Source of the DNA: an uncultured delta proteobacterium
GTDB taxonomy: Bacteria > Myxococcota_A > Polyangia > Polyangiales > Polyangiaceae
NCBI GenBank assembly: GCA_963763745.1
Contig: CAVXQJ010000016.1
Location: 577,029-607,100 of the forward strand
Reading direction: 5' to 3'
Length of the DNA: 30,072 bases
This document shows, in pieces, positions 1 to 13,910 of the stretch. Within the stretch, counting starts at the first letter, position 1. Each line of letters starts with the position of its first letter. A program made the translations under genes and the position numbers. Below the pieces are notes generated by a model. The model was not told the origin of the DNA. It saw only the letters and a program-made list of their open reading frames with translations, and ran no database searches.

Positions 1-364
1 CGCGGGCGCGATGCCGAAGGACGGCCCTTCCGCTGGCGTGACGATGTTCACCGCGCTCACCTCGATGCTCACGGGCATCCGCGTGCGCCACGACGTCGCG
101 ATGACGGGCGAAATCACGCTGCGCGGCCGGGTCCTCCCGATCGGCGGCTTGAAGGAGAAGGTCCTCGCGGCACACCGCGCGGGCATCAAGCGCGTCATCG
201 TTCCGGATCGAAACAAGGCGGACCTCGACGAGGTGCCCGCCGAGGTGAAGAGCGATCTCGAGTTCGTCTTCGTCACGAAGATGGAGCAGGTGCTCGAGGC
301 CGCGCTCGAAGAAATGCCGAAGCCGAAGCCCAGCGAAGCCGCGGCGCCCGCGCCGGCGAACTGA
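1..364 (+). CDS. lon: ATP-dependent Lon protease, C-terminal S16 proteolytic domain (5' part lies outside the window)
   Basis: The frame of ORF 11..364 stays open to the window edge. Motifs PKDGPSAG (catalytic Ser) and [19 protein letters not shown] (catalytic Lys) align to the Lon peptidase domain. Stop TGA at 362-364. Confidence 0.9.
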
Positions 365-458: not shown

Positions 459-2069
459 TCACTTCCGCCCGCGACGGGTGACCTCGGCGCACGCGCGCGC
501 GTTTCCGTTGCGACATGCGTAGCGGAGGTTGTCGCAGTCGACCGTGCCTTGCGCCGGGCTGCGGTCGGCGCGGAAGCCCGAGCAGCTCGCGCCCTCCATG
601 CCGAGGAACGCGTCGCCGGCCGTGCAGGGCAGACACGAGGAGAGCGTGCCGTTCGGCTCGTGCGTGTTGATGAGCTTACCGGCGCGCGTCGTGTCGCCCG
701 TGTAGCCGTCACACGGGTCGCCGTCTTTCGCGGTGAGCGTCTTGCCGTAGACCTCGTCTGCGCACGTCGGAGAGTCGTCGTTCGTCCACGGTGTCTTGCA
801 GAGCGAGACACCGGACGAATTGGTGCACTTGCAGAGAGACGGACCAAGCTTCTCTCGCGCGCACAGGGTCGCCGTGCTGCCGGAGACCGGAAGACACAAG
901 CACCCGAGCTCGCCCGCGAGCGCAGGCGACGTCGTCGCGGCAGTCCGCGCGCTCGCTTGCGGAGCGGGCTCTGCGACCGCGTGCGTGTCGGCTGCGGAAG
1001 TCGCGCTCGCGCTCGGAGCTGCAGACGCGATGGGTGTATTCTGCACATTCACGCTCGGAGCGCTCGTGGGCGATGGCGCGCGACGCGCGGCGAAGAAGAC
1101 CGCGGTCGCGCCAACCGCGAAGGCCGCCGCGGCGACGATGGGCATCGGTGAGCGACGAACATTGCCGGTGGAGGTTTGCTGCGGCGTCGCGTGGAGCGCG
1201 GCGGTCGTCGCGACGTTCTTCGCGCCCGGATTCGGCTCGGGCAGGATCGCAAGCGAGCCCGTCGTGGCGCCGAGCGCGCGCGCGACTTCGGCCATGTCGG
1301 CGTGGCGCTGCGCGGGGTCGATCGACATCGCGCGCGCGATCGTCAAGCTCACCTCGACCGGCACCTCGCGCAAGAACGCGTGGAGCAGCGCAACGTCCCC
1401 GGTGCTGGGACGCATTCCGCTCAAAAGCTCGTACGCGGTGACGCCCCACGCCCACTGATCCCACAGCGGGCTTGGCGTCGAGCCGGCGCGCTGCTCCGGC
1501 GCCATGTACGCGCTCGTTCCGACGACGCGTCCCTCCGCCGTCCGCACGCTCATCGGAACGTCCGACGTCGGCGCCGACGTGTCGACCGCGACGATGCGCT
1601 TGGCGATGCCGAAATCGAGCACGCGGATTTGGCCGTCGTCCTTCGCGACGATCACGTTCTCGGGTTTCACGTCGCGGTGCACGATGCTCTTGGCGTGCGC
1701 AGCGGCAAGCACGCTCGCGAGCTGTTTGAGCCACTCGAGCTTGAGCGTCACCGGCCCGCTCGCGCCGACGTATGCGCGCAACGTTTGGCCATCGATGTAT
1801 TCCATCGCGAGAAACGGGACGCCGTCGATCTCGCCGGCGTCGAGGAGCGTCACCGCGTTCGGATGTTTGAGCGCCGCGGCCGAGCGCGCTTCGGAGAAGA
1901 GCCGCGCGACGGCTTCGGGTTTGTTCTTGTCGCGCCGCACGATCTTGAGCGCAACGAGACGCTGGAGCATCGTGTCGAACGCGAGCATGACCTCGCCCAT
2001 CCCGCCCGTGCCGAGCGGCGCGCGGATCTCGTAGCGTCCGAAGCGCGTGCCGACCTCCATGATCGCCAT
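459..2069 (-). CDS. Hanks-type Ser/Thr protein kinase, single-pass membrane protein with Cys-rich C-terminal (extracytoplasmic) domain
   Basis: Kinase motifs GTGGMGEV, VALK, HRDVKPEN, DFG, TSAYMAPE. Ala/Pro linker, a predicted TM segment (MPIVAAAAFAVGATAVFFAA), then ~150 aa with 14 Cys. The ORF extends to 2105; starts at 2069 or 2060 fit kinase N-termini better. Confidence 0.85.
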   Translation of the reverse strand: MAIMEVGTRFGRYEIRAPLGTGGMGEVMLAFDTMLQRLVALKIVRRDKNKPEAVARLFSEARSAAALKHPNAVTLLDAGEIDGVPFLAMEYIDGQTLRAYVGASGPVTLKLEWLKQLASVLAAAHAKSIVHRDVKPENVIVAKDDGQIRVLDFGIAKRIVAVDTSAPTSDVPMSVRTAEGRVVGTSAYMAPEQRAGSTPSPLWDQWAWGVTAYELLSGMRPSTGDVALLHAFLREVPVEVSLTIARAMSIDPAQRHADMAEVARALGATTGSLAILPEPNPGAKNVATTAALHATPQQTSTGNVRRSPMPIVAAAAFAVGATAVFFAARRAPSPTSAPSVNVQNTPIASAAPSASATSAADTHAVAEPAPQASARTAATTSPALAGELGCLCLPVSGSTATLCAREKLGPSLCKCTNSSGVSLCKTPWTNDDSPTCADEVYGKTLTAKDGDPCDGYTGDTTRAGKLINTHEPNGTLSSCLPCTAGDAFLGMEGASCSGFRADRSPAQGTVDCDNLRYACRNGNARACAEVTRRGRK

Positions 2070-2673
2070 GGTACGCTCGACGGCCATGCACGACGGCGTA
2101 TTCATCCACGAATCGGCCTACGTCGACGAGCCATGCACGATCGGCGAGGGGACGAAGATCTGGCATTTTTGCCACGTGCAGCGCGGCGCGAAGATCGGAC
2201 GCTCGTGCGTGCTCGGGCAGAACGTCAACGTGTCGAACGACGTCACGATCGGCGATCGCGTGAAGATCCAGAACAACGTGTCGGTCTACACGGGCACGAC
2301 CGTCGAGGACGACGTGTTCCTCGGCCCGTCGTGCGTGCTCACGAACGTGTCGAACCCGCGCTCGGAGATCAACCGCAAGGCCCAATACGAACGAACGCTC
2401 ATTCGGCGCGGCGCGACCATCGGCGCGAACGCGACGATCGTGTGCGGCGTCGCGATCGGTCGTTACGCGTTCATCGCGGCGGGCGCGGTCGTCTCGCGCG
2501 ACGTCCCCGACTTCGGTCTCGTGATGGGCGTGCCCGCGCGTCGCGTCGGTTGGATGAGCAAGCATGGCCATCGCCTCGAGAACCCCGACGCGGACGGCGT
2601 GATGACGTGCCAAGAGGGCAAGCTCAGGTACCGCGAAGAAAGCGGCGTGCTCCGCTGTCTCGACGAAGCATGA
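2047..2673 (+). CDS. Hexapeptide-repeat (left-handed beta-helix) sugar N-acetyltransferase, WbpD/PglD-like
   Basis: Repeated [LIV]GxxxxI hexapeptides (IGEGTKI, IGRSCVL, IGDRVKI, IGANATI, IGRYAFI). GTG at 2047; alternative ATG starts at 2059, 2068 and 2086. Stop TGA 2671-2673 overlaps the next ATG. Confidence 0.8.
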   Translation: MPTSMIAMVRSTAMHDGVFIHESAYVDEPCTIGEGTKIWHFCHVQRGAKIGRSCVLGQNVNVSNDVTIGDRVKIQNNVSVYTGTTVEDDVFLGPSCVLTNVSNPRSEINRKAQYERTLIRRGATIGANATIVCGVAIGRYAFIAAGAVVSRDVPDFGLVMGVPARRVGWMSKHGHRLENPDADGVMTCQEGKLRYREESGVLRCLDEA

Positions 2674-3758
2674 TGCGCATTCCATTCGTCGACTTGCGCC
2701 GCGACGTGCGCGACGACCGAGAGCTCGAGGCCGCGTTTCGTCGCGTGCTCCAGAGCGGGAAGTACATCCTCGGCGAAGAGGTCGAAGCGTTCGAGCGCGA
2801 GTGTGCGCGCGTCGTCTTTGCGCGTCACGCGATCGGCGTGTCGTCGGGCACCGACGCGCTGCTCGCGTCGCTGATGGCGCTCGGCATCGGGCCGAGCGAC
2901 GAAGTGATCTGCCCCGCGTATACGTTCATCGCGACGGCCACGGCGGCATCGCGTTTGGGCGCGACGCCGGTCTTCGCGGACGTGAGGCCGTGCTGTTTCG
3001 GTCTCGACGCAGACGACGCGGCGCGCAGGATCACACGGAAAACACGGGCGATCATCGTCGTGCATCCGTTCGGGCAAGTCGCGCACCTCGAGGCCATCGA
3101 GCGCGTCGCGCGCGAGCACGGCATCGCGCTCGTCGAGGACGCCGCGCAATCGATCGGCGCGCCGCAACGCGTCGCTGGACGCGTCTCGTGTCTCTCGTTC
3201 TTTCCGTCGAAGAACATCGGCGCGCTCGGCGACGCGGGCCTCGTCGCGACGGACGACGACGAGCTCGCGGCGATCGTGAGGTCGCTCCGCGTGCACGGCG
3301 CCGTCGCGAAGAACGATCACGTGCGCATCGGCGGCAACTTCCGCATGGATGCGCTGCAAGCCGCGCTCCTTCGCGTGAAGCTCCGTCGCATGGACGAAAT
3401 CACGAACAAGAGGCGCGCGAACGCGACGCTCTACGACGAGCTCCTCGCGGGCGCGACCGGCGTGAGCACGCCGAAGCGGTGCTCGGGCGCGCACGTCTTC
3501 AACCAATACATCGTGCGCTCGAACGCGCGCGATGCGCTCCGCTCTCGCCTCGCGGACGCGAGCATCGAGACGGCCATCTACTACCCGCGCCCGCTCCACG
3601 AGCACGCGTGCTTCGCGCACCTGCCGCGCACGAGCCTGCCGGTCGCAGAGGAAGCCGCGAGGACGACGCTCGCGCTCCCGATTTTCCCGGAGCTCACGGA
3701 GGAAGAAATCCGTCACGTCGCTTCTCAGGTCGCTTCGAGCACCGAGCGAAGCAAGTAG
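2670..3758 (+). CDS. PLP-dependent sugar aminotransferase, DegT/DnrJ/EryC1/StrS family
   Basis: 362 aa. Family-typical N-terminus (IPFVDL...), the PLP-Lys context SFFPSKNIGALGDAG and the C-terminal YYPRPLHE...LPIFPELTEEE. ATGA start/stop overlap with the upstream acetyltransferase. Confidence 0.85.
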   Translation: MMRIPFVDLRRDVRDDRELEAAFRRVLQSGKYILGEEVEAFERECARVVFARHAIGVSSGTDALLASLMALGIGPSDEVICPAYTFIATATAASRLGATPVFADVRPCCFGLDADDAARRITRKTRAIIVVHPFGQVAHLEAIERVAREHGIALVEDAAQSIGAPQRVAGRVSCLSFFPSKNIGALGDAGLVATDDDELAAIVRSLRVHGAVAKNDHVRIGGNFRMDALQAALLRVKLRRMDEITNKRRANATLYDELLAGATGVSTPKRCSGAHVFNQYIVRSNARDALRSRLADASIETAIYYPRPLHEHACFAHLPRTSLPVAEEAARTTLALPIFPELTEEEIRHVASQVASSTERSK

Positions 3759-6727
3759 AGCGCTTCGGCGCGCTCGACGGGGTGTAGCTCCGCGAGCGGC
3801 TTCACGACTTGGAGACGAAAGCCCGTGCACATCGTCTTGCTGTTCATCCACTTCGTGTCGGCGTGGAGCTGGACGGCGCCTTGCTCGCGGCTCATCTGGT
3901 ACCAGTTGCTCACGCCTTGCTCGCTGAGCACGCGCTGGAACGCGGAGTAGAAAATCGGCTGCGAGAGCTCGCGCCGGATCTCTTGCTTCGCGTCGTCGTC
4001 CGCCGCGATCGGGAGCGGCGTGCGCGCGAGCTGCGCGACGGGTTGAATGAGCCCGTAGTCGGTGAACGTGCGCGCCCACGTGTCGAGCGTCTTCGTGTCG
4101 AGCTCGGCGAAGTGCGGAACGCGGACCAACTCGGTGTCGCCGAGCGTGAGTGCGGAGTCTTCGATGTCAGCGAGCGAGCTGTCTTCCGCGACGCGAAACG
4201 TGACGAGCGCGCCGTCGCGCTCGACGGCCCAGACCATCGCGCGCGCTTGATGCTTGCCGAGCGGGTGATTCGCCCAACCCGCGAGGAACCGCGGCGCGGG
4301 AACGCGACGAGCGCTGCGCATCGCATCGACGAGACCGCGAGCGCGAAGACGCGCGATCGTGCGCACGTCTTCTTTGAGCTCGTCCCACCGCTCGCGCGCG
4401 AGGCGAATCGCGATCGGATCATCGGACGATTGCGCGCGCGGTATCGCAGCGAGCCTCTTTTCGCCGAGAAATAGAATCGGCGCGAGCGTCGTGTCGAACC
4501 CGACTTGTAGCGTGCGCGCGCCGTATTCGAGCGACGTCGTGCCCTCTTCGGCGAGCGCGGTCGTCGGCAGGAGCGTCTCGACGATCGCGTCGACGGACGT
4601 CGAGAGGCCGGTCGCGACGTTGCGCATCGAGTGTGGAGCGTCGCCGCGTTCGTGCGCGGTCGCGATCTCCATCGACGCGGAGCGCACGCCGCGAATCGCG
4701 AGGTGCTCGAGGACGCTATGAATCGTCGTGTGCTTGAGCGCGGGCGTGAGGCGACGAATCACGAGGTCGTTCGCGAAATGAACGAGCGACCAACGCATCC
4801 ACTCGAGCGCATCTTGTCGCCATCGCTTGGCGCTGTCCGCGAACGCGGCGAGGTCCCACACCATCTCCGCCAGCGAGTCCGGATCGCATGCAGCTTTCAA
4901 GTCCTCGAGGCCTGCGTACGGTTCTTCGATCGGCGAGAACGAGAGGATCTCGAGGACCCGCTCGTGCGCGTCGTCGGCGAACATTCGCCCATCGCGAAGT
5001 CGCGCGTGCTTGACGTGCGGCGCTTGCCCGAGCTTCACGGATTGCGAGGGAACGTCGAGGCGCGCATCGCGATCGAGGAGCTCCGCGATCATCGCCGTGT
5101 GCTCCGTCGGCACGAACGAGAGAATCGTCTCGCGATGACCGAGGCGCGCGAGCTTGCGGAGGGCGAGCACGCACGCGTGCTGGTAGTTGGGCTCGTGAAC
5201 GTGGGCGAGCAAACCGAACGCGGCTGCGCGCGGCTGCGCTTCGAACCACGACCACGTGTGTTGTCGCGCGAGCCACGCCGTCGCGAGGCCGAGCGCGATG
5301 CCCGCGTCGTCGATGCGATCGCGCACCTCGCGTTCGAGGTACGCGGCGCGACCCGTCTGGCGCAGGCCGGGGAGCGCGCGCTCGCCGAACGCGCCGAGCA
5401 TCAGCACGTCGATCGTGCCGGACCAGCGTCCGGCGTTGTAGAAGGCAAGCACCGTCTCGATCGGTATGGCGGCGTCGGCGAACTGGAACGAGTACACCGA
5501 GCCTTTCGCGCCTTGCGCGCCCATGAACTCGTTCAGCTGCTCCGCGTTCATGTACGGCTTGCCGCTGCGCTGCCTATCGAGCTCAGCGAGCGCTTTGTTC
5601 TTTTGTTCTTCCGAGACCTCGAGGCGCGATGACCACGTGGTGACATCGAGCCCGAGCTTCGGAAGCGCGAGCGCTCCTTTTCTCCACGGCGCGTCGCGCA
5701 GCACGGCGGGCATCGCGGGATCGTCCAGCGCGACGGTCTCGCCGGGCTCGGCGCTCGTCTGATCGCCGCAGATCTTGATGAGAAGCTCCTTCGCGAGCGC
5801 TGCGTTCCGCGATGCGCCCTCGCTCGCGGCGGGGAGCACTGCGGCCGCGAGCTTCTTGTCGTGCGTGAAGTAGTCGCCGATGATCTTGCGCGTCGGTGGA
5901 TTCGAGATTTGCTTCGCGAGGTGCTTCGCGGACGTTTCGTTGACGATGACGCTCATCGCGAGTGCGTGCGACAAACGGCGAGCGTGGCCCGTCGCGGCGG
6001 GCGCGAGCGAGAGCAAGATGGGGAGCGCGTCTTCGCCGAGCGACGCGACGATCTCGGGGTACGCGATCGCGTCGCTCTTCGTCGCGCGCGCGACGAGCGT
6101 GCGCATCGCGTCCTTGTCGCGCACGATCGCGAGCTGCCTCGAGTCGAACTTCGGCGCTTGGTCGAGGATCTCCGCGGCTGCCTGCGCGCGCCACGCCTCG
6201 TCGTCGAAGAACGCGTAGGCGAGGTGCTCGTGGACTTCGACGTCGCCGGCGTCCCACGTGGCCTGCGCGAGCTCGCGACACTTCGCGCGCACCGAGGCGT
6301 CGCGCTCCGACGCCAAGAGGATGCGCAGCATGTCGCCGTTCGGGCGTTTCTTGGCCGGTTTGATCACGCCGTCCACGTTCTCGAAGCGAGGCGTGATGAG
6401 AAGCGGCGCCACGCGTGCGGTCCCGAAGTGCTCCGCGAGCCACTCGCACGTGCGATCGCCGCCGGTCGCCACGGCGAAGACCGCGAGCTCGTCATCGGTG
6501 AGCGCGGTCGGGGCGTTTTCGAATTCGACGACGCGCGCGAGCACCGCGGCGATTGCCGGATCGTCTGCGCGAAGCGAGCGCTTCGCCCAATCGACCATGT
6601 ACTTGATGCCGCTCCACTCGCTGTAGCGCCAGCGGCCGCGGTTGTCCTTCACGTCGGTCGAGTTGCGCGGCGCGATGCAAATGCGCGCGGCGGTGTGCCA
6701 ATGAAGCGTCATTGGGAATGCGCGCAT
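3725..6727 (-). CDS. Large (1000 aa) alpha-helical protein of unknown function (possibly DUF4132-like C-terminal region; unverified)
   Basis: Uninterrupted 3-kb ORF with coding-like composition and no recognisable catalytic motifs. Starts 6 nt after the EBP stop. Its 3' end overlaps the convergent aminotransferase by 34 bp. Confidence 0.7.
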   Translation of the reverse strand: MRAFPMTLHWHTAARICIAPRNSTDVKDNRGRWRYSEWSGIKYMVDWAKRSLRADDPAIAAVLARVVEFENAPTALTDDELAVFAVATGGDRTCEWLAEHFGTARVAPLLITPRFENVDGVIKPAKKRPNGDMLRILLASERDASVRAKCRELAQATWDAGDVEVHEHLAYAFFDDEAWRAQAAAEILDQAPKFDSRQLAIVRDKDAMRTLVARATKSDAIAYPEIVASLGEDALPILLSLAPAATGHARRLSHALAMSVIVNETSAKHLAKQISNPPTRKIIGDYFTHDKKLAAAVLPAASEGASRNAALAKELLIKICGDQTSAEPGETVALDDPAMPAVLRDAPWRKGALALPKLGLDVTTWSSRLEVSEEQKNKALAELDRQRSGKPYMNAEQLNEFMGAQGAKGSVYSFQFADAAIPIETVLAFYNAGRWSGTIDVLMLGAFGERALPGLRQTGRAAYLEREVRDRIDDAGIALGLATAWLARQHTWSWFEAQPRAAAFGLLAHVHEPNYQHACVLALRKLARLGHRETILSFVPTEHTAMIAELLDRDARLDVPSQSVKLGQAPHVKHARLRDGRMFADDAHERVLEILSFSPIEEPYAGLEDLKAACDPDSLAEMVWDLAAFADSAKRWRQDALEWMRWSLVHFANDLVIRRLTPALKHTTIHSVLEHLAIRGVRSASMEIATAHERGDAPHSMRNVATGLSTSVDAIVETLLPTTALAEEGTTSLEYGARTLQVGFDTTLAPILFLGEKRLAAIPRAQSSDDPIAIRLARERWDELKEDVRTIARLRARGLVDAMRSARRVPAPRFLAGWANHPLGKHQARAMVWAVERDGALVTFRVAEDSSLADIEDSALTLGDTELVRVPHFAELDTKTLDTWARTFTDYGLIQPVAQLARTPLPIAADDDAKQEIRRELSQPIFYSAFQRVLSEQGVSNWYQMSREQGAVQLHADTKWMNSKTMCTGFRLQVVKPLAELHPVERAEALYLLRSVLEAT

Positions 6728-6733
6728 CGTACC

Positions 6734-8056
<1,323 letters not shown>

Positions 8057-8071
8057 CGGTCGATCATACTC

Positions 8072-9591
8072 TCAAAGATAAGGATTCGGCGGTGGGCCCG
8101 ATGCGGTCGCTGCCGGCGTCGTCGCGGTCGCAGTCGCGGTCGCGCTCGGCACGAGTCGCGGTCGCGTCGTGCGCGTCGTCATCGAGGCCGTCGCGCTGGC
8201 CACATCCGCGCTGTGCGCCGTGAACGTGAGCGACGCGATCGCCGGCTCGGCGATCGACGCGGTCGGAAGCGGGCTCTCTGCCGACGCGGCAGCTCTCACG
8301 GGCGGCGGCTTGTGCGTTGCGAACACGACCGCGCTCGCACCCGCGAGGAGCGCGATGCCCGCGACGACGACGACCACCGTGAGCGGTCGCGCGCGCGACG
8401 GGACTCCCGCGGGCGCGAGCGCGTCCGAAGTCGTTGGCTCCGCGCTTCCATAAACCGCCGTGTGCGCGGGCGCGGCGACGTTCGGGATCAGCACCGGTGC
8501 ATCGATCTCCGTCGTCGCCACCGCGGCCGGCGCGGCGGAGGGCGCGCTCGACGGCACGCTCGACGGAATGCTCGGCGGCTCCGCGCCCATCAAGCTCAAA
8601 AATCCCGGCTCCGACGCGAGCCGCTCGCGCACCTGCGCGCGGCGCGCCTCGAGCTGCGTCGCGGCGACGCGTTTGACGATCTCCGACACCTCCGCGTGCG
8701 ACGCGACGAGCCCCGCGCGCGCCGCGCACGACTCGAGCGCCGCTGCGAACGCGCGCGTCGTCGAGAAGCGTCGCTCCGGATCCTTGTCGAGCGCCGTCAC
8801 GAACACGTCGTCGAGCGCGGCGAGCTCCGGCGCGCCCGCGGACACGCGCAGCGCCTCGTGCGTCATGATCCGCTGCGCCGTCTCGACCTCGTTCTCGCCG
8901 CGGAACAACCGCTTCCCCGCGAGCGCCTCCCAACCGACGACGCCGAGCGCGAAGACGTCGACGCGGCGATCGATGCGGCGCCCTTGAACGTACTCGGGCG
9001 ACATGTACGCGAGCTTGCCTTTGAGCATGCCGCTGTTCGTCACGGCCATCGCCGTCGCCTTCGCCACGCCGAAGTCGGACACGCGCGTCGCGCCGTCGAT
9101 GCCGATGAGGAGATTCTGCGGCGACACGTCGCGATGCACGAGCCCGACGGGTCGTCCCTTTTCGTCGAGCAGCTCGTGCGCCGCGTGAAGCCCCGCGCAG
9201 GCTTCGAGCAAGATGCGAACGACGACGCGCGCCGGCACCTTCTCGTTCGCCTTGCTGGCGAGCACGAGCAGCTCGCCGAGCGACGCGCCCTCGATGTAGT
9301 CCATCACGAGCCGGATCTCTTCGTGCCGCCTTCGCCGGACGTGACGTACACGTCGCGCACGTCGACGACGTTCACGTGATGAATGAGCGACGCGAGCCGA
9401 GCCTCCGCCACGAGCTCCTTGCGGTAGCTCGGATCATCGAGCAGGTGCGGATGGGGTTCTTTGATCGCGACGATCTGGCGGAAGCCCATCGAGCCGCGCG
9501 CGGCGCCGACGTAAACGGTGGCCATCCCGCCCGACGCCAGCTTGAACAAGATGTCGTAGCGGGCGTCGCTCTTCCGCCGCTCCGTCGCCAT
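8072..9591 (-). CDS. Hanks-type Ser/Thr protein kinase with C-terminal TM segment and Ala/Ser/Thr-rich tail; reading frame interrupted by an apparent 1-nt deletion near 9311-9330
   Basis: Subdomains I-IV (GGMATVY, VAIK) lie in ORF 9304..9591. Subdomains V-XI (LVMDYIEGASL, HRDVSPQN, DFG, SPE) lie in ORF 8072..9307, in another frame. Restoring one base between ...SGEGG and EEIRLVMDY rejoins them. Confidence 0.75.
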
Positions 9592-9605
9592 CCCAGAACA
9601 CTACG

Positions 9606-10559
9606 TCAGAAGGACATTCTCCAAAAGATCGCAGCGCCATGCGTGCTCGGGGCCACCTCGACCGTCGCGTGCCATCGCGTGAGGGCTCCCGCGACGATCG
9701 TCCACACGGCCGCTGCGATCGAGACGCCGAGGAGAGCGTCGCCCGTGGCCATCGTCGCCGTGCCCGAGCTCGCGAGCGAGTTGCACGAGGCCGTCGTTTG
9801 CGTGGCGCACGACTGCGAGACGAACGAGTCGTGCGTCGACTGCGTCACGGCGAGCAGGATCGCCGACGCCGTGCCGAGCGCCACCGTCGCGCCGAGGCTC
9901 GCCCAAAACACCGCCGGCGGAAGACCCTTCGCGCGCGCGCGCAGGGCGATGGGTTGCTCGCTCGGCGCGATCGTCACGAGCGGCGGTGGCGGCGTCACGT
10001 CGGTTCGCGTGTAGATCGTCGGTGGTGTTTGCGGCGGCGGCGATGGCTCGATCGCGACCTCCGCGTCCGCCGTGACGTCGATGGCGCGCGCCTCGCTTCG
10101 GCCATCGATCGAAAACGTGATCGCATGCGTCCCCACCGCGACCCAGCGCGCGCGTCCGATGTCGAGCGCGACGCCATCCATCGTCGCCGTGCACGCCGCG
10201 GGACACGCTGCTTTCACGCGGCCCGCGCGATGCGCGAGCTTCGCCTCCGCGGCGCGTACGGACGCCTCGAGCGCGCCGCTCGCGTCTCGCGATCGCGCGC
10301 GCTCGAGGAGCTCCGCGCCGAGCACCGCGTCGTCGGCCTTCACGCACGCGTCGAGCGCCGCTTGAAGCGCCACGGGGCTCGGCGCGATCGCGTCCGCGCG
10401 CGCGTACGATGCGGCGGCCTTCGCGAGCTCGCCGCGCGCGTATTCGCGCGTGCCCTCGTCGTACGCCGCGCGTGCTCGAGCGCGATCGTCGTCGGCGTGG
10501 GCCGCGTGCGCCAGCGCCATCGCGACGGCGATCGCGCCGAGGGTCGCGCGCGCTCTCAA
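9606..10559 (-). CDS. Secreted/membrane protein: signal peptide, helical periplasmic region, Pro-rich linker, two TM segments
   Basis: TTG start at 10559-10557 overlapping the upstream TGA (TTGA), with an alternative GTG at 10565. Signal peptide MRARATLGAIAVAMALAHAAHA. PPPQTPPT/PPPP linker. Hydrophobic segments AVFWASLGATVALGTASAILLAV and LLGVSIAAAVWTIVAGAL. Confidence 0.6.
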   Translation of the reverse strand: MRARATLGAIAVAMALAHAAHADDDRARARAAYDEGTREYARGELAKAAASYARADAIAPSPVALQAALDACVKADDAVLGAELLERARSRDASGALEASVRAAEAKLAHRAGRVKAACPAACTATMDGVALDIGRARWVAVGTHAITFSIDGRSEARAIDVTADAEVAIEPSPPPQTPPTIYTRTDVTPPPPLVTIAPSEQPIALRARAKGLPPAVFWASLGATVALGTASAILLAVTQSTHDSFVSQSCATQTTASCNSLASSGTATMATGDALLGVSIAAAVWTIVAGALTRWHATVEVAPSTHGAAIFWRMSF

Positions 10560-10978
10560 TGGCACCCCGCGCCCGTGCACGAGCAGCCCGCCCCCGTGCA
10601 CGTGTCGTTGCACGTCCCGTCGCACTGAAACGAGCAACCGCCTCCGCTGCAAGACACGTTGCACACGGCGCCCGCCGCACATTCGACCGAGCAGCCGCCT
10701 TGGTCGCAAGAGAGGTTGCACGTCGAGCCGGCCGGGCACTTGTAGTCGCATCCGCCGCCCGCGCACGATCCGTTGCACACGTCGCCCGACGAGCAGGCCA
10801 AGCTGCACCCGCCCGACGCGCACGTTCCGTTGCAGATGTCGCCCCCGCACGTGTAGCCAACGGGCGCTTGCGCGTCGCCTGGCGGCGGTTTGTTTTCGCC
10901 GCCCACGCTCCAGTCGTAGAGACACGAGACGAGCAGCGCGCTCGTCACACTCGCTACGATCGCTTGCCTCGCGCGCAC
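10556..10978 (-). CDS. Small lipoprotein with tandem 19-aa Cys repeats (C-x3-C-x4-C-x3-C-x5)
   Basis: GTG start at 10978 with an AGGAG Shine-Dalgarno 7 nt upstream. Signal peptide plus lipobox LVSC. About four repeats of CN[GLV][ST]C-xxGGC-xxxC-xxGxx; 20 Cys in ~95 mature residues. Confidence 0.7.
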   Translation of the reverse strand: MRARQAIVASVTSALLVSCLYDWSVGGENKPPPGDAQAPVGYTCGGDICNGTCASGGCSLACSSGDVCNGSCAGGGCDYKCPAGSTCNLSCDQGGCSVECAAGAVCNVSCSGGGCSFQCDGTCNDTCTGAGCSCTGAGCH

Positions 10979-10982
10979 TCGC

Positions 10983-11633
10983 TCACTCCTTCGACAGCGT
11001 GAACGAACCCTGCTCGGGCGAAGAGCCGTTCGTGTGCCTGTAGTTCATGCCGTTTCCCTGCACGCAGAAAGCGTACTCGTTTCCGTCGCCCGTGACGATC
11101 GTGTCGCCTTGCACCGTGTAGGTCGTCGAGCCTTCGTCGCTGAGCGTGGTGGTCACGTCGCACTTGCATCCACTGCTCCCGTCGTCCGCACACGACGCGG
11201 TCGTGGTGCCCGCGGCCATGTCGCTCTGCACCGCGGCGCATCCGCCGGCGGGCACGGAGCACGAAGCGGGGACGTCGAGCGTCGCTTTTCCCGTCACCGT
11301 GTATGCGCGCGAGACGTTGCCTCCTGCGAACGCGACCTGCGCGGTGACGGTCGCCGACGTGTTCGTGATCGACGCCCCGGGACACGCGCTCGTCAAGCCG
11401 GAGAGATCGAGCTCGGCGCAACCGCCCGTGTAGCTCCATGTGCCTTCCACCGCGCCGCCGCACGAGGTCGTGCTCGGACACGACGCTTCGATGCTCACTT
11501 GCGCCGGCTGCGGGGCGCTCGCCTGTGAGTCGCCCGCCTTGCCTGCGTCGCCTTGGCTCGCGGGAGCGGAGCTGCACGCGAAGAGCCCGAACGTGAAGAG
11601 AATCGAGAGTGCCCGAAACGATGAGTGGCGCAT
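10983..11633 (-). CDS. Secreted lipoprotein, Ser/Thr/Gly-rich with 10 Cys, unknown function
   Basis: ATG at 11633 preceded by GGAGG (9-nt spacing). Signal peptide MRHSSFRALSILFTFGLFAC with lipobox LFAC. The stop lies 4 nt before the next gene's GTG. Confidence 0.65.
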   Translation of the reverse strand: MRHSSFRALSILFTFGLFACSSAPASQGDAGKAGDSQASAPQPAQVSIEASCPSTTSCGGAVEGTWSYTGGCAELDLSGLTSACPGASITNTSATVTAQVAFAGGNVSRAYTVTGKATLDVPASCSVPAGGCAAVQSDMAAGTTTASCADDGSSGCKCDVTTTLSDEGSTTYTVQGDTIVTGDGNEYAFCVQGNGMNYRHTNGSSPEQGSFTLSKE

Positions 11634-11705
11634 GGGATGGAACCTCCACACGCTTCCTCTTCAAGTCGCGTTCCACACGAAACATGTTGAAAATAGGCGT
11701 TTGCG

Positions 11706-11765
11706 TGCGTCACGCGTGACCGCTTTCGGCGACCCCGCGCGAGGTGCATGCGTCACGGGTGACGC
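11706..11765. promoter_or_regulatory. Two 16-bp palindromes GCGTCAC-NN-GTGACGC (11706-11721, 11750-11765) in divergent intergenic region; candidate operator / enhancer sites
   Basis: The palindromes are near-perfect and perfect inverted repeats, centres 44 bp apart. A weaker third half-site pair lies at 11785-11797 (ATGACGCGTGTC). Both 16-mers are conserved exactly in the right-arm copy (16123-16138, 16162-16177) although the surrounding sequence has diverged. Confidence 0.4.
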
Positions 11766-11816
11766 ACCGCTGGTATCGTGAGCGCATGACGCGTGTCTCG
11801 TTCTGTTCCGTATTCG

Positions 11817-11832
11817 CGGCACGCCGTTCGCC
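11817..11832 (+). promoter_or_regulatory. Candidate sigma54 (-24/-12) promoter cGGCACGccgtTcGCc upstream of the Nudix gene
   Basis: Matches TGGCACG-N4-TTGC at GGCACG and the T-GC positions, with correct GG-N10-GC spacing. It lies 37 bp before the ATG at 11869 and 55-110 bp downstream of the tandem palindromes. The match is weak. Confidence 0.2.
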
Positions 11833-11868
11833 ACGCTCGAATATCCGCGCACGTGCGCGAGCTGCAAG

Positions 11869-12331
11869 ATGCAGACATGGGCGAATCCGATTCCCGTGTC
11901 GGTCGTGTTGTTGCCCGTGCGACACCGCGCGCGCGAAGGTTTGCTCGTCGTGCGACGCGGCATCGAGCGGGTCTCGGGGAGCTCGCGATCGTCGGAGGAT
12001 TCCTCGAGGAGCACGAGACGTGGGCGGAGGGCGGGGCGCGCGAGCTTCGCGAGGAGACTTCGGTCGTCGTCGACGCGAAGACGCTCGAGCCGTTCTGGTT
12101 CACGTCGACCGGCCGAAGCCGAATCGCGTTCTCTTGTTCTCGCTCGCGCCGCCTGTCGATTCGAGCGGGCTCGCGCCGCTCGCCCCGAACCACGAGACGC
12201 TCGCGCGCGGTCTCGTGTTCGGTCCGCGCGGTCTCGACGACGTCTTCGCGTTTCCTCTGCACGCAGAGGCCGCGCGGAGATTCTTCGCGTCGCGCAACGC
12301 ATCGGGGGAACATGACTTCGCCGAAATATGA
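11869..12331 (+). pseudogene. Nudix hydrolase interrupted by two 1-nt deletions (near 11968-11970 and 12098-12110)
   Basis: The N-terminus NPIPVSVVLLPV...GLLVVRRGIE reads in frame 1. The Nudix box GGFLEEHETWAEGGARELREETSV reads in frame 2. The C-terminus NRVLLFSLAPPVD...FFASR reads in frame 3. The right-arm copy reads RRGIEPGLE straight through the first break. Confidence 0.6.
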
Positions 12332-12932
12332 TCTCCTCGCGGCGTGGCACGCGCGCGCCGATGTCTTGCTCGACGAAGCGCTCGCGCTCCTCGTCGATCA
12401 CGAGGAGTTGCCTTTTGCGGACGGCGAGTGGGTGCGTCAGCTCGCGCGATTTCGATTCTCCGCGCAGCACGTCGCGCCGGTCGTCGCGCTCATCCGCAAA
12501 CGCGATCCGTTCCTGTGCGAGGCGGGTATCGTGCTCGCGGCATCGCTGCTCGAGCGGAATCGCGACGCGGCGGCGGAAGTGGACGCAGCCGTCGCATCCG
12601 TGTTCGAGGCGCCGCCCGTCAATCCGTGGATCCTCGAAGCAATCGCGTCGCTCGCATCGCGCCACGCGGAGCTCGCGCGGTTCCCGCTCACGTATCGCCG
12701 GCTCGTCGTCGAGCTCGAGGCGCGCCCATCGATCGCGATGGAGCCGCAGCGCATCATGCGCAATCGCGCGATCGCTCCGCATCGCAGGTTCATCGGAATG
12801 TTCGAGCACCACATCCTCAGCGCGCAAACGCAGACGGAGCGCGAGCGTCTCGTCCTTCCGCTCGTCGAAGCTGCGCTCGGCACGCGCGGATTCGAAGCGA
12901 CGCGCGACGCGCTCGCTCGACGCTTCGGATGA
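12312..12932 (+). CDS. Hypothetical protein (~206 aa, alpha-helical, no recognisable motifs)
   Basis: Intact ORF from ATG 12312 to TGA 12930-12932 with coding-like composition. It overlaps the Nudix 3' end by 20 bp. Confidence 0.5.
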   Translation: MTSPKYDLLAAWHARADVLLDEALALLVDHEELPFADGEWVRQLARFRFSAQHVAPVVALIRKRDPFLCEAGIVLAASLLERNRDAAAEVDAAVASVFEAPPVNPWILEAIASLASRHAELARFPLTYRRLVVELEARPSIAMEPQRIMRNRAIAPHRRFIGMFEHHILSAQTQTERERLVLPLVEAALGTRGFEATRDALARRFG

Positions 12933-12965: not shown

Positions 12966-13910
12966 ACTAATGAACCGGTGGCAGCGAGATCTTGAACACG
13001 TCCCACGCAGGGCGTGTGGTTGTTCTCCGGCCGCGGGTTGGTTCCCACAGGTAGAGCGCGGCATACGTCGTGCACGGTTCCGTTCGCGACGACGACGGGC
13101 GTCACGTAGAGCTGTGGGTTTCCCGCTTCGTCCCGCACCGAGCTGAAGACGACCCAGTAGAACGTGCGGCTGCCGCTCGCGGGCGACGCTTGCGGCGCCC
13201 ACTTCGGCCAGCTGTTCGTCACGCCCGGGAGATTTTTTCCCGGTGCACGCGGGCGGATCGTTCGCGGCGAGTCGCGTCGCCGTTCCGCCGCTCGCGGGAA
13301 TGGACGAACACCTCCGCTTGCGGCTGGTTGTACATGTTCAAGTTGTGCCGATGCGATCGAACGCGAGGAGCTCATGGTCGGGCGAGTACGCCGGGGTAGT
13401 ACTCTTCGTAGTTCGCGTCGGGACGCGCCGGAGATCGGCGTCGCCGTGCCGCCCGCGCGGTTCGCGTACGGGATCGAATAGAGATCGGCCGAGCCGTTGT
13501 CGAGGCGACCGGTGACGACCGCCGTCGTCGAGCACGTAGACGATCGTGTTGCCGTGGTCACTACACGCGGCGCCGCGCCTTTGCGCGTGTCGCCGGTGCG
13601 CAGAAACGTGCCCGTCGCGGTGCCGTTCGCGACGCCGAGGAATCGACCCCAGCTCGAAATCGGAGTCGTTGAACGTCGTCACGACGACGTAGTCGTTCTG
13701 CGGCCCAATGCGCGGGCGGACGTCACGCTAATCCCGCGCGGCGCGTGCTCGACGCCGCTTTGCCCGCCGCGCCAGAGAAACGGCGGAACTTGTCCGACGG
13801 TGTTCTGCTCGATCGAGGCGATCGCGTTGTTCCAGCCGTTCGAAGTGCTGAGCTCCGCGTAGAGGCCATCGGCATGCGAGCATGCTGGCAGCCGATGCAC
13901 GATGCGCCGA
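12966..13910 (-). pseudogene. Fragment of a PD40/TolB-like beta-propeller protein, multiply frameshifted and truncated at the palindrome centre
   Basis: Protein-like segments sit in three minus-strand frames: ...PAYSPDHELLAFDRIGTT...; DLYSIPYANRAGGTATPI; LPGVTNSWPKWAPQASPASGSRTFYWVVFSSVRDEAGNPQLYVTPVVVANGTVHD. The frame runs across the centre as GAIVYWTTEGRIFAQ. Confidence 0.4.

Follow-up and report, generated by a model that had tools for sequence, protein, structure and literature searches.

A membrane Hanks-type serine/threonine (Ser/Thr) kinase with an FHA partner is known from mycobacteria, where PknB is accompanied by FhaA or GarA. In Myxococcus xanthus, FHA-domain NtrC-like enhancer-binding proteins (EBPs) were reportedly the subject of a study by Jelsbak, Givskov and Kaiser in 2005 (PNAS 102:3010, cited in PMC11980068 and PMC4320627). 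This bacterium has 52 EBP homologues (PMC4880591), and one of its EBP cascades includes Nla28, whose site is CT(C/G)CG(C/G)AG (PMC7910581, PMC9765219). In the present study, a 30,072-nt stretch of contig CAVXQJ010000016.1 from an uncultured delta proteobacterium, hereafter the window, was analysed. Its minus strand carries genes for two Cys-rich lipoproteins (lipoprotein 1 and lipoprotein 2), a membrane protein (tm3), a Hanks-type Ser/Thr kinase and an FHA-domain sigma54 EBP (the activator), followed by a gene for a 1000-aa protein. On balance, we read the region 6734-11766 as one self-contained sigma54-dependent signalling operon of Polyangia-type Myxococcota, which would be autoregulated and would act through a kinase-controlled activator.

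The window activator is built like the M. xanthus FHA EBPs: an FHA domain takes the N-terminal place of the receiver, followed by a sigma54 AAA+ core that contains GAFTGA and by an HTH_8 domain. Its input is likewise presumed to come from Ser/Thr kinases of the myxobacterial kinome. However, it belongs to a separate orthologue group of uncultured Polyangia, its FHA domain lacks the canonical Arg, and its gene lies in a predicted operon with three uncharacterised envelope proteins, a conserved candidate promoter and a palindrome, which suggest putative autoregulation. The window kinase resembles PknB in being single-pass and in having its catalytic domain in the cytoplasm, a juxtamembrane linker that could be phosphorylated and a gene for an FHA protein close by, whereas its outer part is a low-complexity tail ending in PPPNPY and not a PASTA region or folded sensor, its catalytic-loop Lys is replaced by Ser, and its FHA partner is a transcription activator. 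As in the Nla28 cascade, an example of autoregulated sigma54/EBP operons, 8-bp half sites in tandem or palindromic arrangement lie upstream of a -24/-12 promoter, a putative one in the window operon, and the activator gene would stand under the promoter class that the activator itself serves. Nevertheless, the window half site GCGTCA/TGACGC is a different one, and the input would be a Ser/Thr kinase instead of a histidine kinase. We regard the module as real and as an uncharacterised variation on the kinase/FHA-activator theme known from myxobacteria. The original prediction, which was made from the DNA letters alone, named the whole locus as a candidate novel one; this is fair for the three envelope proteins, but goes too far for the pairing of kinase and FHA activator, an established theme of the myxobacteria.

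Conservation of the five-gene module

The contexts of the module were gathered by tblastn with the window proteins. Lipoprotein 1, lipoprotein 2, tm3, kinase and activator followed one another in the window's order in loci L007, L008 and L010, and the full five-gene order was also present in L009, with two additional genes ahead of the activator. Partial sets were found in approximately 10 further contigs. Locus L011 ran from lipoprotein 1 to the kinase and then reached the contig end; L014 held tm3, kinase and activator; L012, L013 and L015 held lipoprotein 2, tm3 and kinase; L017, L018 and L019 held tm3 and kinase; and L016 held lipoprotein 2 and tm3 without the kinase. The tm3 gene lay immediately before the kinase gene in 13 of the 14 loci having downstream DNA, and the adjacency of kinase and activator was retained in 6 loci. 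Conserved synteny had been named with the original prediction as a check, and it was found: the five genes share their order in L007, L008, L009 and L010, and partly in L011-L015 and L017-L019. The proposed unit of a kinase and an FHA-sigma54 activator preceded by envelope proteins was thus conserved across loci.

In L007-L010, the identity to the window proteins was 52-62% for lipoprotein 1 (35-62% when L011 is included), 38-47% for lipoprotein 2, 47-56% for tm3 and 55-66% for the kinase, and it reached 64-80% for the activator (L014 included). The flanking genes were different at every module locus. The activator was followed by a DUF4132 gene in the window, by a gene for a 258/260-aa protein in L014 and L009, and by a convergent gene in L008. 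The module loci came from metagenome-assembled genomes labelled "uncultured delta proteobacterium", "Myxococcales bacterium" and "Polyangiaceae bacterium". Judged from these comparisons, the five genes are a predicted conserved operon of soil myxobacteria (Polyangia-type Myxococcota).

Of the two additional genes of L009 (9558-11645), between the module kinase and the activator, one encodes a lipoprotein-like protein of 143 aa and the other a second kinase, in the opposite orientation.

A candidate sigma54-type promoter and palindromes upstream of lipoprotein 1

When the 220 nt upstream of lipoprotein 1 were aligned from four loci, islands of identity were seen within otherwise diverged intergenic DNA. 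The sigma54-type -24/-12 element (Table 1) was the sole match to TGGNACG-N4-TTGM in the window. In five loci (the window, L007, L008, L009 and L010), TGGAACGCnnCTTGA was located 40-42 nt ahead of the ATG, and these closest loci share a conserved TGGAACG-N4-TTGA (GG-N10-GA). At the equivalent place in L012 and L013, the canonical GG-N10-GC elements TGGCATGCGGCGTGCT and TGGCGAGCGGCGTGCT were present. A sigma54-type -24/-12 element was thereby found 30-42 nt before the first gene in seven of eight loci. The sigma54 consensus is TGGCACG-N4-TTGC(T/A), and M. xanthus promoters tolerate single-base deviations in the GC or GG dinucleotide (PMC7910581). A scan of 3400-12400 for sigma70 promoters and terminators gave nothing above chance.

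Two GCGTCA-N4-TGACGC sites were located approximately 90 bp upstream of the -24/-12 element in the window, and the second of them coincided with the block GTGACGCA conserved in the four-locus alignment. At no more than one mismatch, the palindrome core occurred 11 times in 251 kb of retrieved DNA. Each of the eight loci with a module 5' end had one of these occurrences 94-176 nt ahead of its first module gene, which accounts for eight of the 11. This arrangement has the predicted layout of a classic activator-dependent sigma54 promoter. Since the conserved palindrome is present upstream of the first gene in all eight loci, it points to autoregulation by the encoded activator, which probably switches on the promoter of its own operon. 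Autoregulation is the simplest reading, and we infer that the activator binds the candidate palindrome.

Domains of the activator and the kinase

The activator contained an FHA domain (PF00498, 63.5 bits against a cut-off of 20.7, residues 44-107), a Sigma54_activat domain (PF00158, 233 bits against a cut-off of 20.2), in which Walker A/B and the GAFTGA loop were read in the translation, and an HTH_8 domain (PF02954, 27.6 bits against a cut-off of 22, residues 395-429) with a helix-turn-helix of the Fis type. Its assignment as an FHA-domain sigma54 EBP was therefore confirmed. The best PDB matches of the FHA domain were the FhaA FHA structures 3po8 and 2lc1, and the domain keeps the motifs S-R-x-H (as S-R-V-H) and T-N-G. 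In an exact look-up, the activator protein was not on record.

The kinase, after repair of a frameshift described below, matched Pkinase (PF00069) with 105 bits against a cut-off of 31.7, and its motifs VAIK, HRD, DFG and SPE were placed at residues 41, 153, 173 and 198, respectively. A cytoplasmic kinase domain is followed by a single predicted transmembrane helix (approximately residues 399-427) and an outer tail that is rich in Ser, Thr, Ala and Pro and ends in PPPNPYL. The orthologues were uninterrupted proteins of 486-495 aa with 62-70% identity over the full length. Among the 120 closest kinase relatives (P0020-P0139), 84 had a PP(P/A)NPY C-terminal end after a low-complexity extracytoplasmic tail, and all 120 had HRD(V/I)SPQN, with Ser replacing the catalytic-loop Lys. 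Together, the two motifs would be the signature of a large, apparently undescribed kinase subfamily, and no mention of HRDVSPQN was found in the literature searched. In addition, the cytoplasmic juxtamembrane linker carries EPTTSD in the window, a motif conserved as EPT(T/V)(S/T)(D/E). Motifs of the T-x-x-D class are FHA ligands, and EPT(T/V)(S/T)(D/E) fits this class.

Three envelope protein families

The lipoproteins were called by sequence pattern. The lipobox of lipoprotein 1 reads GLFAC in the window and LAAC or VVAC in orthologues, and that of lipoprotein 2 reads LLVSC in the window and LLAGC or LASC in orthologues. Ten Cys residues of lipoprotein 1 are invariant. For lipoprotein 2, the translation and alignment revealed 3-4 copies of the 19-aa repeat CNxSCxxGGCxxxCxxGxx, and the GC content at the third codon position (GC3) was 0.85 in its frame. 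The Cys-rich lipoproteins proposed earlier thus proved sound, given the lipoboxes (LFAC and LVSC) and the 19-aa Cys repeat seen in lipoprotein 2. Neither lipoprotein had relatives in PDB, Pfam or NCBIfam, and a single-sequence AlphaFold2 model of lipoprotein 1 was unusable (pLDDT 41). A thrombomodulin match (E 0.55) and a PLipase_C_C match below the cut-off were treated as chance.

Lipoprotein 2 was found in L007-L013, L015 and L016. Its gene is usually missed by public gene callers, for example in P0140 (L009) and P0141 (L013), because the tm3 open reading frame (ORF) is open upstream in the other frame and is called with a spurious Arg-rich N-terminal extension covering lipoprotein 2. In the more distant loci L012 (6031-6929) and L013 (2101-3239), two tandem or divergent Cys-repeat genes of the lipoprotein 2 type were present without lipoprotein 1.

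No Pfam or NCBIfam match was obtained for tm3. An exhaustive search gave 1012 clusters of relatives (50% identity) at E<=1e-3 and 89 at E<=1e-30, and among the relatives of this family no Pfam family was seen besides weak TPR matches. Helix-turn-helix repeats of the TPR kind were present in tm3, which has a TPR-like fold with confident N-terminal domains. A GTG at 10565 is an equally possible start. A VKOR hint for the membrane hairpin (E 0.12) was rejected, as it was seen in one of 41 family members alone. TPR domains often bind C-terminal peptides, and a contact between the tm3 TPR and the PPPNPY end of the kinase is therefore an attractive hypothesis.

Is the activator controlled by the kinase?

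Several observations weigh against the reading of 6734-11766 as an autoregulated operon with a kinase-controlled activator. At the promoter, the -12 element is TTGA instead of TTGC in the five closest loci, and L011 gave no clean -24/-12 match. The palindrome, a candidate site for the activator, could be bound by a different regulator. In L012, lipoprotein 2, tm3 and kinase stand behind a sigma54-like promoter without an adjoining activator. The window kinase has the loop HRDVSPQN and a degenerate Gly loop (ASGGMATV), in departure from the canonical HRDxKxxN and GxGxxG, and its activity is putative. In tm3, the signal peptide is clear, but positive charges lie ahead of the first hydrophobic helix, which is at odds with an N-domain in the periplasm, and the topology is ambiguous. 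Finally, the G-R motif of the FHA domain is replaced by G-S (VGSS); the Ser is present in the window and all four orthologues at the position that aligns with the Arg of FhaA IGRG, and canonical phosphothreonine (pThr) binding by this domain is uncertain.

The last point modifies the earlier argument that FHA domains bind pThr and that the kinase is the obvious input. Because the G-R Arg is absent from the FHA domain in all orthologues, a kinase-to-FHA relay is plausible, but less obvious than was assumed. We considered whether the kinase and the activator are co-expressed without a pThr-FHA relay. The FHA-like domain would then be a phospho-independent regulatory or oligomerisation domain, as in YscD of the type III secretion system, and the kinase would have tm3 as its partner and its substrates elsewhere. 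Besides the missing Arg, the nearly equal scores of the N-domain on Yop-YscD_cpl (56.7 bits) and FHA would agree with this, as would the two genes between kinase and activator in L009 and the occurrence of tm3-kinase pairs, which are far more widespread than the linkage to the activator. However, the other pThr-contact motifs S-R-x-H and T-N-G are retained, kinase and activator stay adjacent in the 6 loci mentioned above, and the T-x-x-D/E motif in the cytoplasmic linker of the kinase is conserved. Co-expression without a relay is regarded as possible but doubtful.

Reading frames, the kinase frameshift and contig quality

The G+C content of the window is approximately 68%, and the ORF lists are therefore noisy; the real frames were picked by GC3, which was 0.8-0.9 for the minus-strand ORFs in the frames of Table 1. 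The spacings between the six genes, calculated from the coordinates, are 4, -4, 14, 15 and 6 nt. Of the six minus-strand ORFs and the 4-15 nt spacings originally predicted, five ORFs and the spacings were exact, but the kinase frame is interrupted by a frameshift of 1 nt. No matches were obtained when the window was scanned for Rfam families and tRNAs. A reading as a defence system was rejected, because PADLOC gave generic kinase-domain (PD-T4-6, mad6) and AAA+ (RtcR/PspF) matches alone, and no match for the three envelope proteins or DUF4132.

Table 1. Coordinates of the module, its upstream sites and the adjoining backbone genes in the window
Feature	Coordinates	Strand	Description
Sigma54-type -24/-12 element TGGAACGcgacTTGA	11661..11675	-	42 nt upstream of the lipoprotein 1 ATG
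Palindrome 1 TGCGTCACccGTGACGCA	11749..11766	.	core GCGTCA-N4-TGACGC; candidate activator-binding site
Site 2 GGTCACGCGTGACGCA	11706..11721	.	second copy of the palindrome motif; exact 8-mer positions
Lipoprotein 1	10983..11633	-	216 aa; lipobox, low-complexity linker, ~165-aa domain with 10 invariant Cys; without known family
Lipoprotein 2	10556..10978	-	140 aa; lipobox, conserved YDW motif, 19-aa Cys repeats, C-terminal CxCTGxGC; without known family
tm3	9606..10559	-	317 aa; signal peptide, TPR-like 5-helix bundle, beta-sandwich, Pro-rich linker, two hydrophobic helices around a loop with a C-x7-C pair
Hanks-type Ser/Thr kinase	8072..9591	-	~506 aa after repair; frame broken by a 1-nt indel at ~9310-9335
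FHA-AAA+(sigma54)-HTH_8 enhancer-binding protein (activator)	6734..8056	-	440 aa; GAFTGA present; FHA G-R = G-S
DUF4132 protein	3725..6727	-	1000 aa; backbone gene adjoining the module, outside the conserved set
Hexapeptide transferase	2047-2673		backbone gene
DegT	2670-3758		backbone gene
NUDIX	11836-12328	+	backbone gene; split over three frames
PD40	13007-13879		backbone gene

The kinase had been predicted as a single ORF at 9591-8072. This was disproved, as the span of 1520 nt is no multiple of 3 and the translation gives two frames. The first 95 codons run from 9591 to a stop at 9304-9306, and the 411 codons of the C-terminal part follow at 9307-8072 in another frame. The frame plot changes phase at this point, and the public record of the contig calls only a 410-aa C-terminal piece (P0020). 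The break is a single 1-nt indel in the context GGCGGCAC, and one restored base gives the kinase a loop length equal to that of L007 and L009. Both halves had a GC3 of approximately 0.86 and 62-66% identity to intact orthologues over the full length. Programmed frameshifting was rejected, since the orthologues are all single ORFs.

The window itself is a giant imperfect palindrome. Its stretch 3-13908 matches 27352-14024 in reverse complement; the two are 77-80% identical, and a gap opens approximately every 24 nt. The centre of the inverted repeat, at approximately 13966, cuts the PD40 gene, and the second arm (arm 2) extends to approximately 29330. Arm 2 showed no codon periodicity, C-to-T-biased substitutions, mostly 1-2-nt indels and an AT skew of approximately +0.25. 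The inverted repeat most likely arose as a fold-back chimera of long reads that was left unpolished in the deposited contig. Furthermore, the NUDIX gene contains two frameshifts within approximately 150 nt and has intact orthologues in L001 and L003, which speaks for indel errors in this region of the contig.

If the frameshift were real, the kinase would be a pseudogene, the pathway non-functional and the module in decay in this genome. The frameshift is present in the deposited assembly, as P0020 attests, and the arm 2 copy is without the extra base at the frameshift spot, both of which would suit a decaying module. Nevertheless, arm 2 is a noisy copy with an indel approximately every 24 nt. 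The lesion is a single nucleotide, both halves keep their GC3 and their identity to intact orthologues, the NUDIX gene carries two more frameshifts, and the fold-back in the contig is typical of long-read assembly error. Decay of the module is thus unlikely, and the kinase frameshift is most likely a long-read assembly indel error, which was judged clearly more probable than a pseudogene. Users of the contig should know of the fold-back and the indel errors.

The DUF4132 gene and the backbone locus

The 1000-aa protein matched DUF4132 (PF13569, E 9.5e-28, 97.8 bits against a cut-off of 27, residues 757-919). The DUF4132 family includes E. coli MolR/YehI-type proteins and WGR-DUF4132 fusions, and such fusions were among the homology-search matches of the window protein. 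The C-terminal DUF4132 domain is shared with this family, but the window protein is without a WGR domain, and its long helical N-terminal region is shared with approximately eight metagenomic orthologues only. The earlier statement that neither the envelope proteins nor the 1000-aa protein had an assignable function held for the three envelope proteins, which match no Pfam or NCBIfam family, whereas the 1000-aa protein has an assignable family, DUF4132, though not one of known function.

Eight full-length DUF4132 orthologues with 45-60% identity were found, and six loci were viewed in context. A PD40-(NUDIX)-DUF4132-DegT-hexapeptide backbone was present in L001, L003/L004 and L006 (NUDIX absent in L006), and different neighbours surrounded the orthologue in L002 and L005. 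In none of the six loci were the kinase, FHA activator or lipoproteins adjacent, and DUF4132 and the module co-occurred in 0 of 13 other module loci and 0 of 6 DUF4132-orthologue loci. In this genome, a 5-kb block from 6734 to approximately 11770 is placed between NUDIX and DUF4132, and only in this genome does the module sit between backbone genes. The activator-DUF4132-DegT junction was confirmed in a Logan assembly built independently from a run of the source; therefore, the adjacency of DUF4132 and module is real, and it appears lineage-specific. Across the 6-nt gap, the DUF4132 gene would at most be transcribed by read-through from the module in this genome. From its contexts, it is a predicted unrelated neighbour that belongs to a separate NUDIX/DegT backbone. 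It is highly improbable that all six genes form one unit, with the DUF4132 protein as the dedicated output or partner of the kinase/FHA-activator switch as first proposed, for although the 6-nt gap from the activator stop to the DUF4132 start on the same strand, the lack of a terminator-like site beyond chance and the confirmed junction would allow it, none of the DUF4132 orthologues examined in context adjoins the module, three or four of them lie in the backbone seen on either side of the window module, and other module loci have no DUF4132 gene and a varying gene after the activator.

Three further features were seen in the backbone locus. A second Ser/Thr kinase gene (459-2105, minus strand; 548 aa) encodes the canonical HRDVKPEN, one transmembrane helix and a Cys-rich C-terminal domain, and is syntenic with the kinase gene beside hexapeptide/DegT in L001 (65% identity). 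A 206-aa ORF with good codon bias follows NUDIX (12310-12932, plus strand) and had no Pfam match at E<=1. A C-terminal Lon protease fragment (2-364, plus strand) is 98% identical to the L001 Lon; the window organism and the L001 organism are thus close relatives, even though the module is present at this site in just one of the two.

Proposed circuit and its significance

For the autoregulated, kinase-controlled operon, the following course is proposed. The exported lipoproteins and the TPR/beta-sandwich domain of tm3 would form the extracytoplasmic sensing part, and tm3 would be the constant partner of the kinase, possibly via the PPPNPY tail or the membrane helices. The kinase may autophosphorylate in its cytoplasmic linker, where the T-x-x-D/E motif EPTTSD is the best candidate site, and the phosphorylated kinase would control the FHA-AAA+ activator. 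The activator would in turn bind the palindromes and remodel sigma54-RNA polymerase at the promoter of its own operon, giving positive feedback. Beyond this locus, we tentatively speculate that a widespread pairing of co-receptor and kinase may have gone unrecognised in Myxococcota, with tm3-like proteins as the co-receptors of HRDxSPQN kinases that have a PPPNPY tail. A periplasmic TPR would read PPPNPY, the Cys-rich lipoproteins would be ligands or redox-sensitive modulators, and one clade would have been wired to an autoregulated sigma54 switch via an Arg-less FHA domain.

The new elements are the conserved set of five genes, three of which encode unannotated envelope families, its candidate promoter and operator, an Arg-less FHA domain and the membership of the kinase in a large subfamily with HRDxSPQN and PPPNPY. 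Three protein families without annotation are thereby defined, one of which, lipoprotein 2, is systematically missed by gene callers. Myxobacteria have hundreds of Ser/Thr kinases and dozens of sigma54 activators, very few of which have known inputs or targets. The module offers a compact testable circuit, made up of a candidate promoter, GCGTCA-N4-TGACGC as the candidate operator, a putative docking motif on the kinase and three conserved extracytoplasmic candidate sensors.

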